Source: Escherichia coli (lineage in GTDB: Bacteria > Pseudomonadota > Gammaproteobacteria > Enterobacterales > Enterobacteriaceae). Taken from it: a stretch of DNA of 2,993 bases. Location of the stretch: the NCBI RefSeq assembly GCF_003334335.1, contig NZ_QOWQ01000086.1; one strand, written 5' to 3'. The translations under genes and the position numbers were made by a program. Shown here piece after piece: positions 2,102 to 2,985 of the stretch (within the stretch, counting starts at the first letter, position 1; each line of letters begins with the position of its first letter). The notes under the pieces are model-generated. The model saw only the letters and a list, made by a program, of their open reading frames with translations. It was not told where the DNA came from and did not search any database.

Positions 2102-2903
2102 ACCACGTCCCACCGTGCTGGTGTTTGACTCCGGCGTCGGTGGGTTGTCGGTCTATGACGAGATCCGGCATCTCTTACCGGATCTCCATTACATTTATGC
2201 TTTCGATAACGTCGCTTTCCCGTATGGCGAAAAAAGCGAAGCGTTTATTGTTGAGCGAGTGGTGGCAATTGTCACCGCGGTGCAAGAACGTTATCCCCTT
2301 GCGCTGGCTGTGGTCGCTTGCAACACTGCCAGTACCGTTTCACTTCCTGCATTACGCGAAAAGTTCGACTTCCCGGTTGTTGGTGTCGTGCCGGCGATTA
2401 AACCTGCTGCACGTCTGACGGCAAATGGCATTGTCGGATTACTGGCAACCCGCGGAACAGTTAAACGTTCTTATACTCATGAGCTGATCGCGCGTTTCGC
2501 TAATGAATGCCAGATAGAAATGCTGGGCTCGGCAGAGATGGTTGAGTTGGCTGAAGCGAAGCTACATGGCGAAGATGTTTCTCTGGATGCACTAAAACGT
2601 ATCCTACGCCCGTGGTTAAGAATGAAAGAGCCGCCAGATACCGTTGTATTGGGTTGCACCCATTTCCCTCTACTACAAGAAGAACTGTTACAAGTGCTGC
2701 CAGAGGGAACCCGGCTGGTGGATTCTGGCGCAGCGATTGCTCGCCGAACGGCCTGGTTGTTAGAACATGAAGCCCCGGATGCAAAATCTGCCGATGCGAA
2801 TATTGCCTTTTGTATGGCAATGACGCCAGGAGCTGAACAATTATTGCCCGTTTTACAGCGTTACGGCTTCGAAACGCTCGAAAAACTGGCAGTTTTAGGC
2901 TGA
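2046..2903 (+). CDS. murI: Glutamate racemase MurI (D-glutamate synthesis for peptidoglycan)
   Basis: Frame of the 2034..2903 ORF. The preferred start is ATG 2046 ([20 protein letters not shown]...), giving 285 aa plus TGA at 2901-2903, with GAGA (2036-2039) as a modest SD ~6 nt upstream. Asp/Glu-racemase motifs are present: VFDSGVGGL near the N-terminus and the two catalytic-cysteine motifs ACNTAS (Cys92, nt 2319-2321) and GCTHFP (Cys204, nt 2655-2657). The translation matches my memory of E. coli MurI. Confidence 0.95.
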
Positions 2904-2906
2904 TTT

Positions 2907-2921
2907 GGTTGAATGTTGCGC
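2907..2921 (+). promoter_or_regulatory. Candidate Fis site I of rrnB P1 (centred ~ -71)
   Basis: Seen: GGTTGAATGTTGCGC loosely fits the degenerate Fis consensus (G at position 1, C at 15, A/T-rich centre), centred ~71 bp upstream of the inferred P1 start. Established: rrnB P1 has Fis sites centred near -71, -102 and -143. Assigning a degenerate site by eye is weak. Confidence 0.4.
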
Positions 2922-2924
2922 GGT

Positions 2925-2985
2925 CAGAAAATTATTTTAAATTTCCTCTTGTCAGGCCGGAATAACTCCCTATAATGCGCCACCA
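2925..2985 (+). promoter_or_regulatory. rrnB P1 ribosomal RNA promoter: UP element, -35, -10, GC-rich discriminator and start region
   Basis: Seen: A/T-rich UP element CAGAAAATTATTTTAAATTTCCT (2925-2947), -35 TTGTCA (2949-2954), 16-bp spacer, consensus -10 TATAAT (2971-2976), then GCGCCACCACTG with the expected +1 at A ~2985. Established: this is the textbook rrnB P1 architecture, located directly downstream of murI in E. coli; 16S rRNA would begin beyond the window. Confidence 0.88.

Follow-up and report, generated by a model that had tools for sequence, protein, structure and literature searches.

The upstream activating region of the ribosomal RNA promoter rrnB P1 of Escherichia coli, composed of the Fis sites I to III and the UP element, is known from the work of Ross et al. 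(1990) and from later work of the Gourse laboratory, as presented in PMC2885671. Both the binding of Fis to this region and the resulting activation have been described (Ross et al. 1990; Bokal et al. 1995; both as cited in PMC2885671). The three sites, with their centres at positions -71, -102 and -143, approximately share one helical face, and as long as polymerase is absent Fis does not bind them cooperatively (PMC2885671). An information-theory model of Fis binding is reported to locate the same three sites, in agreement with DNase I footprints (bioRxiv 10.1101/2020.02.05.936344). Furthermore, a preprint from 2024 explicitly states that the Fis sites of rrnB P1 overlap the murI gene (bioRxiv 10.1101/2024.03.27.586983). 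The overlap as such is therefore already known, though it is rarely stressed in the promoter literature.

The tyrT promoter has a comparable organization. It, too, serves a stable RNA and has three phased Fis sites, and one of these lies inside the co-directional upstream gene purU (bioRxiv 10.1101/2024.03.27.586983). It differs in the gene pair that is involved and in having a single site in coding sequence where rrnB has two, and its Fis sites are spaced by 21 bp, in contrast to the 31 and 41 bp at rrnB P1 (PMC2885671). A second point of comparison lies closer by. The reading frames of btuB and murI overlap at 2046-2101 of the DNA analysed here, and this overlap is likewise dual-use DNA with a depressed level of synonymous change. 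In this case, however, one protein is written over another, and the constraint is far stronger: the ratio of third-position steps to the mean for the same amino acid elsewhere (O/E) is 0.07-0.08, against 0.3-0.7 for the Fis sites.

The locus considered in this work is the same as the one described for E. coli and, with regard to what PMC2885671 presents, nothing differs. The new elements are modest and concern the comparison between species: the constraint on murI codons that goes with the Fis sites is quantified, the evidence being clear in the case of site II and less strong in that of site III, and the stop codon of murI is seen to move over a fixed DNA scaffold.

The window, that is, the whole stretch of DNA that was analysed, counts 2993 bases and represents the btuB-murI-rrnB P1 region of E. 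coli K-12. Its bases 2700-2993 are 100% identical to MG1655 and are found in each of the 5426 complete E. coli genomes (5426/5426). In MG1655, the order is btuB with its cobalamin riboswitch, murI, the 16S rRNA gene, the tRNA-Glu gene and the 23S rRNA gene, the last three belonging to the rrnB operon. On the identical MG1655 locus (L001), RefSeq annotates murI as glutamate racemase, and the 16S rRNA gene begins 374 nt past the murI stop. The mechanically derived open reading frame of murI starts at 2034, while the annotated coding sequence starts at 2046. All promoter positions are given relative to the transcription start of rrnB P1 (+1 = A2985), so that position -n corresponds to 2985-n; the stop codon TGA of murI, at 2901-2903, thus occupies -84 to -82. 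The features are as follows.

2046-2903, + strand: murI coding sequence, 285 amino acids (RefSeq on the MG1655 locus L001, 2347-3204, and the list of open reading frames)
2835-2849, unstranded: core of Fis site III, GAACAATTATTGCCC, centre 2842 (-143), score 13/13, inside murI
2876-2890, unstranded: core of Fis site II, GCTCGAAAAACTGGC, centre 2883 (-102), score 10/13, inside murI
2904-2924, + strand: gap between the murI stop and the UP element, 21 nt, nearly all of it Fis site I, with no terminator
2907-2921, unstranded: core of Fis site I, GGTTGAATGTTGCGC, centre 2914 (-71), score 11/13, intergenic, 4 nt past the murI stop
2925-2947, + strand: UP element of rrnB P1, A/T-rich sequence, boundaries as established for rrnB P1
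2949-2985, + strand: core promoter of rrnB P1, promoter scan, 11 of 12 consensus positions

With regard to the btuB riboswitch, it may be noted that RefSeq places it at 2-192 of the window, and that the corresponding Rfam model (RF00174) scores only 18.5 bits there against a gathering score of 31.5.

The promoter scan returned a sole strong sigma-70 site on the + strand. It consists of the -35 hexamer TTGTCA (2949-2954), a spacer of 16 nt and the -10 hexamer TATAAT (2971-2976). The +1 was placed at A2985 because the -10 hexamer is followed by a discriminator of 8 nt, GCGCCACC, at 2977-2984. This is the arrangement of a sigma-70 rrn P1 core promoter with a G+C-rich discriminator, located upstream of a 16S rRNA gene. 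According to the same scan, P2 follows about 119 nt downstream of P1 in the MG1655 locus. Upstream of the core, the A/T-rich block AGAAAATTATTTTAAATTTCCT at 2926-2947 covers -59 to -38 and therewith the position of an UP element (about -40 to -60). The latter is conventionally counted from -60 to -40, which is 2925-2945 in the window, and the block agrees with this textbook numbering.

The potential Fis sites were scored on 13 points (G-7, Y-4, A-3, five central A/T positions, T+3, R+4 and C+7), the core consensus that underlies this score being a degenerate one. The three predicted cores, GGTTGAATGTTGCGC, GCTCGAAAAACTGGC and GAACAATTATTGCCC, all have the form G-N13-C with an A/T-rich centre and are found exactly at the published centres, their spacings of 31 and 41 bp being in accordance with helical turns and conserved. 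Site III is the only perfect match to the consensus in the window. In the upstream coding DNA (1-2820), a score of 11 is reached by 0.14% and a score of 10 by 0.82% of the positions, and a score of 13 by 0 of 2805 positions. Since the three matches occur at positions that had been named beforehand, and given these low background rates, they are far beyond chance. The score of site II is by itself only modest, about 0.8% of the coding positions reaching the same level.

Most of this layout had been proposed in a preliminary description of the same DNA, and it holds on recomputation. The coordinates given there for the murI stop, the UP element, the core promoter and the Fis centres are all correct, including the distance of 21 nt between the stop and the conventional start of the UP element. 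The Fis centres, which had been expected at about 2914, 2883 and 2842 from the known positions, coincide with 15-mers that match the consensus and with the published centres (PMC2885671), and a motif scan of the kind suggested as a check, carried out with the degenerate consensus, gave 11, 10 and 13 of the 13 points for the sites I, II and III. The two upstream sites had been assigned to the last 20 or so codons of murI; the exact figure is the last 22 of 285. Site III coincides with codons 264-268 (E Q L L P), while site II starts at the third base of codon 277 and ends at the second of codon 282 (T L E K L A). The central claim, namely that the DNA at about 2835-2890 serves both as murI coding sequence and as Fis sites II and III, finds support in the coordinates, in the centres from the literature and in the comparison between species that is presented below.

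It is very probable, therefore, that this is the well-characterised upstream activating region of rrnB P1, two of its Fis sites (II and III) being contained in the final 22 murI codons and site I in the gap behind the gene. On the basis of published work, each of the three sites would take up a Fis dimer, all of them on about the same side of the helix. At site I, this dimer would touch RNA polymerase that is positioned on the UP element and the core promoter, and P1 transcription would go up during fast growth, when Fis is abundant; sites II and III would add a smaller contribution. The same bases encode the C-terminal tail of MurI and keep the Fis core signature across the Enterobacteriaceae, and the tail may well tolerate the demands of this regulatory code.

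The comparison comprised 80 murI loci of Enterobacteriaceae, with one genome per species. An rrn P1 core (TTGTCA, 16 nt, TATAAT) follows murI in 71 of the 71 loci that extend far enough downstream, and in all of them the number of nucleotides between it and the LEKL codons of murI is constant; the rrnB P1 core is conserved in 71 other species. The A/T-rich block at the position of the UP element is conserved in 72 of 72 species. An ungapped stack of these 72 species, aligned on +1, is colinear back to about -165, the sole indel being a deletion of 1 nt in the Citrobacter freundii group. The length of MurI, on the other hand, is variable (283 amino acids in 58 loci, 284 in 3, 285 in 14 and 293 in 6), as a result of shifts in the stop codon alone, the DNA register relative to +1 being fixed.

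The deletion in the Citrobacter freundii group (L012, L040, L044, L048, L049, L050, L053, L055, L064 and L069) is located at about -85, between Fis sites I and II. It shortens the distance between their centres from 31 to 30 bp and changes the distance of sites II and III from +1 by one base.

The longest form of MurI, with 293 amino acids, is found in six species (L017, L021, L034, L036, L059 and L070, with the murI 3' end at about 2350-2385 of each locus), among which are members of Silvania, Entomohabitans, Leclercia and Cedecea as well as 'Escherichia sp. ESNIH1'. Five of these loci extend far enough downstream, and in them the stop codon lies 21-22 nt before the -35 hexamer of P1. In these forms the coding sequence spans all three Fis sites and reaches the edge of the UP element.

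Between -165 and -60, the G-N13-C signature occurs in at least half of the 72 species at four offsets only: -143 (83%), -113 (64%), -102 (79%) and -71 (99%). The shortfall at -143 and -102 is mostly due to a shift of 1 nt. At site III, for instance, G-7 and C+7 are both kept at the exact offset in 60 of the 72 species, and in 10 more with a shift of 1 nt. At site I both bases are kept in 71 of 72, the commonest form being GAGCAAAAAAGAGAC. No fourth site is claimed for the register at -113 (2865-2879 in the window, 11 bp upstream of site II), because Gly and Leu codons explain both flanking bases and the mean score is only 8.5.

The question whether such conservation is more than a reflection of the protein was approached at the level of single codon positions. 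Fitch parsimony steps were counted for each of them on a simple neighbour-joining tree, which was built from the same gene and covers one bacterial family, and third-position steps were expressed as O/E. The overlap between btuB and murI served as a positive control. Across 80 species, O/E amounts to 0.07 for the frame of murI and 0.08 for that of btuB. In this stretch of 56 nt (2046-2101), in which the two genes use different frames, third-position substitution is nearly abolished in both; the overlap itself was already known.

For site II (codons 276-281), the third-position O/E is 0.37 against the murI background, with 4 of 235 windows being equally low, and 0.31 when murI and btuB together are taken as background, with 16 of 684 windows equally low (about the 2nd percentile). 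Site III, with 0.54-0.73 (roughly the 6th to 11th percentile), and the final 24 codons of murI together, with 0.59-0.70 (roughly the 5th to 14th percentile), are borderline in this respect. In reporter assays, site I gives most of the activation and sites II and III contribute little. It could be imagined that the overlap is real but functionally incidental, the DNA at 2835-2890 being conserved by way of the MurI protein, codon usage or the mRNA, and sites II and III being dispensable by-products of an A/T-rich tail. The borderline values just given, both for site III and for the tail as a whole, as well as the predominance of site I, are in accordance with such an explanation, and so is the protein itself, in which the tail residues L266, V269, L270, R272, Y273, F275, E279 and L281 are invariant. 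Individual codons, however, do not behave accordingly, and they make this explanation unlikely. At codon 277 (ACG) the amino acid has been replaced 14 times (T, K, S, R, M and L occur) and the first and second positions have taken 15 steps, but the third base, the G at -7 of site II, has taken only 1. An inverted pattern of this kind is found in only 3 codons of murI, the other 2 of which lie within the overlap with btuB. In codon 282, similarly, the C at the second position, which is the +7 C of site II, changes in 4 steps, whereas the first position takes 13 and the amino acid 16. Constraint by the protein thus fails for both codons. Codon bias works in the opposite direction as well. Codon 268, the last base of which is the +7 C of site III, is the rare CCC in 70 of 81 species, against 19% for the gene as a whole; codon 278 is CTC in 64 of 81, against 10% gene-wide; and codon 279 is GAA in 81 of 81, although Glu codons are divided 51:49 over the gene (51% GAA). 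Finally, the stop codon and the residues that follow L281 drift freely, while the DNA register relative to +1 stays constant.

The patterns at codons 277 and 282, together with these codon choices, therefore go beyond protein constraint and codon bias, and a constraint on the DNA sequence can explain them. Synonymous substitution is reduced to an extent that exceeds both at site II, and to a borderline extent at site III. In terms of sequence comparison, the signs of selection at the level of the DNA inside the murI coding sequence are clear for site II, for which the support is good; for site III they are weaker and suggestive.

Among the most conserved stretches of the murI tail is also CCCGTTTTAC, at 2847-2856 (-138 to -129), just downstream of the centre of site III. 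Its codons CCC and GTT show 6 third-position steps each, where about 19 and 23 are expected. This conservation runs past the 15-bp Fis core, and flanking contacts of Fis, an upstream H-NS site or some other element are candidates to account for it.

The evidence can also be given a much stronger interpretation, which combines three propositions. In the first, sites II and III are under a purifying selection of their own, which overrides codon preference and even residue identity in the tail of MurI. In the second, both the sequence of this tail and its length (283-293 amino acids) are dictated by the regulatory code of the rRNA promoter. In the third, the Fis array acts as a roadblock or insulator that replaces a terminator and ties the fate of the murI 3' end to growth rate. 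That these three should hold jointly seems rather improbable. Nevertheless, the conservation of sites II and III may reflect a role different from activation, because their reported contribution to the latter is small.

A possible role in the termination of murI transcription is connected with the nature of the murI 3' end. The preliminary description saw no intrinsic terminator between murI and P1, and in this respect both scans, the RNA fold, RNAalifold and the Term-seq supplement agree with it. The scans detected no terminator-like site in 2000-2993, nor anywhere in the stretch that separates murI from the 16S gene, and a conserved G+C-rich hairpin with a U tract is absent between the stop and P1. 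As RNA, 2860-2985 folds less stably than shuffled sequences do (z = +1.43), 189 of 200 shuffles folding as well, and for the 72 species RNAalifold yields 3 pairs and -0.99 kcal/mol, with no compensatory change or covarying pair. In the Term-seq supplement of PMC7815308, a site within btuB is followed by the rrsB 3' end with no other 3' end listed in between, and the name murI does not occur. The missing 3' end may result from a low expression of murI; it is consistent with there being no terminator and is not decisive. In the SMRT-Cappable-seq supplement files of PMC6131387 that were searched, there is no entry for murI or btuB. Since neither a terminator nor a conserved RNA structure was found and Term-seq gives no end, read-through from murI into rrnB is plausible, on the strength of an absence of evidence. 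Polymerases leaving murI would probably either meet Fis-bound DNA and a P1 that is occupied nearly all the time or read on into rrnB, and any such read-through would be trivial in amount next to the transcription from P1 and P2. In practice, the transcription unit of murI may in this manner end at the DNA that Fis and polymerase occupy.

A more far-reaching proposal is that the Fis array and the polymerase at P1 together form a roadblock or insulator, which would halt murI transcription, shield P1 from read-through and supercoiling and be a substitute for a terminator. The lack of an intrinsic terminator and of a conserved RNA structure would fit in with this, as would the fact that sites II and III are conserved more than their share in activation suggests. 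To our knowledge, however, Fis is not an established efficient roadblock. It has been argued that rrnB P1 is insulated from its genomic surroundings by the Fis and H-NS sites (bioRxiv 10.1101/2024.03.27.586983), but the insulation meant in that preprint concerns supercoiling and H-NS and not roadblocking. Such a function is accordingly considered improbable.

Least credible of all, and indeed hardly to be entertained, is that the conserved DNA at the murI 3' end represents an RNA element such as a weak terminator, a stabilising hairpin or a small RNA, for even though the minimum-free-energy fold pairs 2864-2880 with 2888-2902, giving a candidate hairpin at 2864-2902 that is followed by the U-containing stretch AUUUGGUU, and even though the Rfam family Ysr197 aligns from the murI stop onwards, the terminator scans are empty, the fold is no better than that of the shuffles, the imperfect hairpin at the stop codon is not conserved and shows no covariation, and the Ysr197 match remains below threshold and extends over the whole intergenic region including P1 and P2. 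A hidden terminator or other RNA element at the 3' end of murI was rejected on the same grounds.

Ysr197 ('Yersinia sRNA 197', RF02849) was likewise not accepted as a real small RNA at this place. Its match scores 39 bits on the window (2902-2993) and 78 bits at full length, against a gathering score of 167. It aligns at 254 of 254 positions to 3203-3456 of the MG1655 locus L001, a stretch that begins at the murI stop and takes in P1, P2 and the leader. Judged from this alignment, the family looks more like the intergenic and promoter region between murI and the 16S gene than like a free-standing small RNA.

To return to the preferred reading, in which the end of murI and the activating region of rrnB P1 share the same DNA, this locus is a textbook type of genome packing: one stretch would form both the end of an essential cell-wall enzyme and the recruiter of the activator of an rRNA operon. 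Whoever recodes, deletes or tags the end of murI, or relocates rrnB, will change the regulation of rrnB P1. In projects of codon optimisation and genome recoding, murI codons 264-282 are therefore to be handled as regulatory DNA. The locus also provides a small example, clean and quantified, of a bacterial gene in which synonymous and even non-synonymous positions are under regulatory selection. The comparative result itself raises no new question.

A last observation concerns one of the genomes in the comparison. The record designated 'Chryseobacterium sp. 18061' (L037, CACSKA010000012.1) contains a murI-to-P1 locus that is enterobacterial and nearly identical to the one of 'Citrobacter sp. 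18056' (L030), which stems from the same project. This assembly is probably mislabelled or contaminated.
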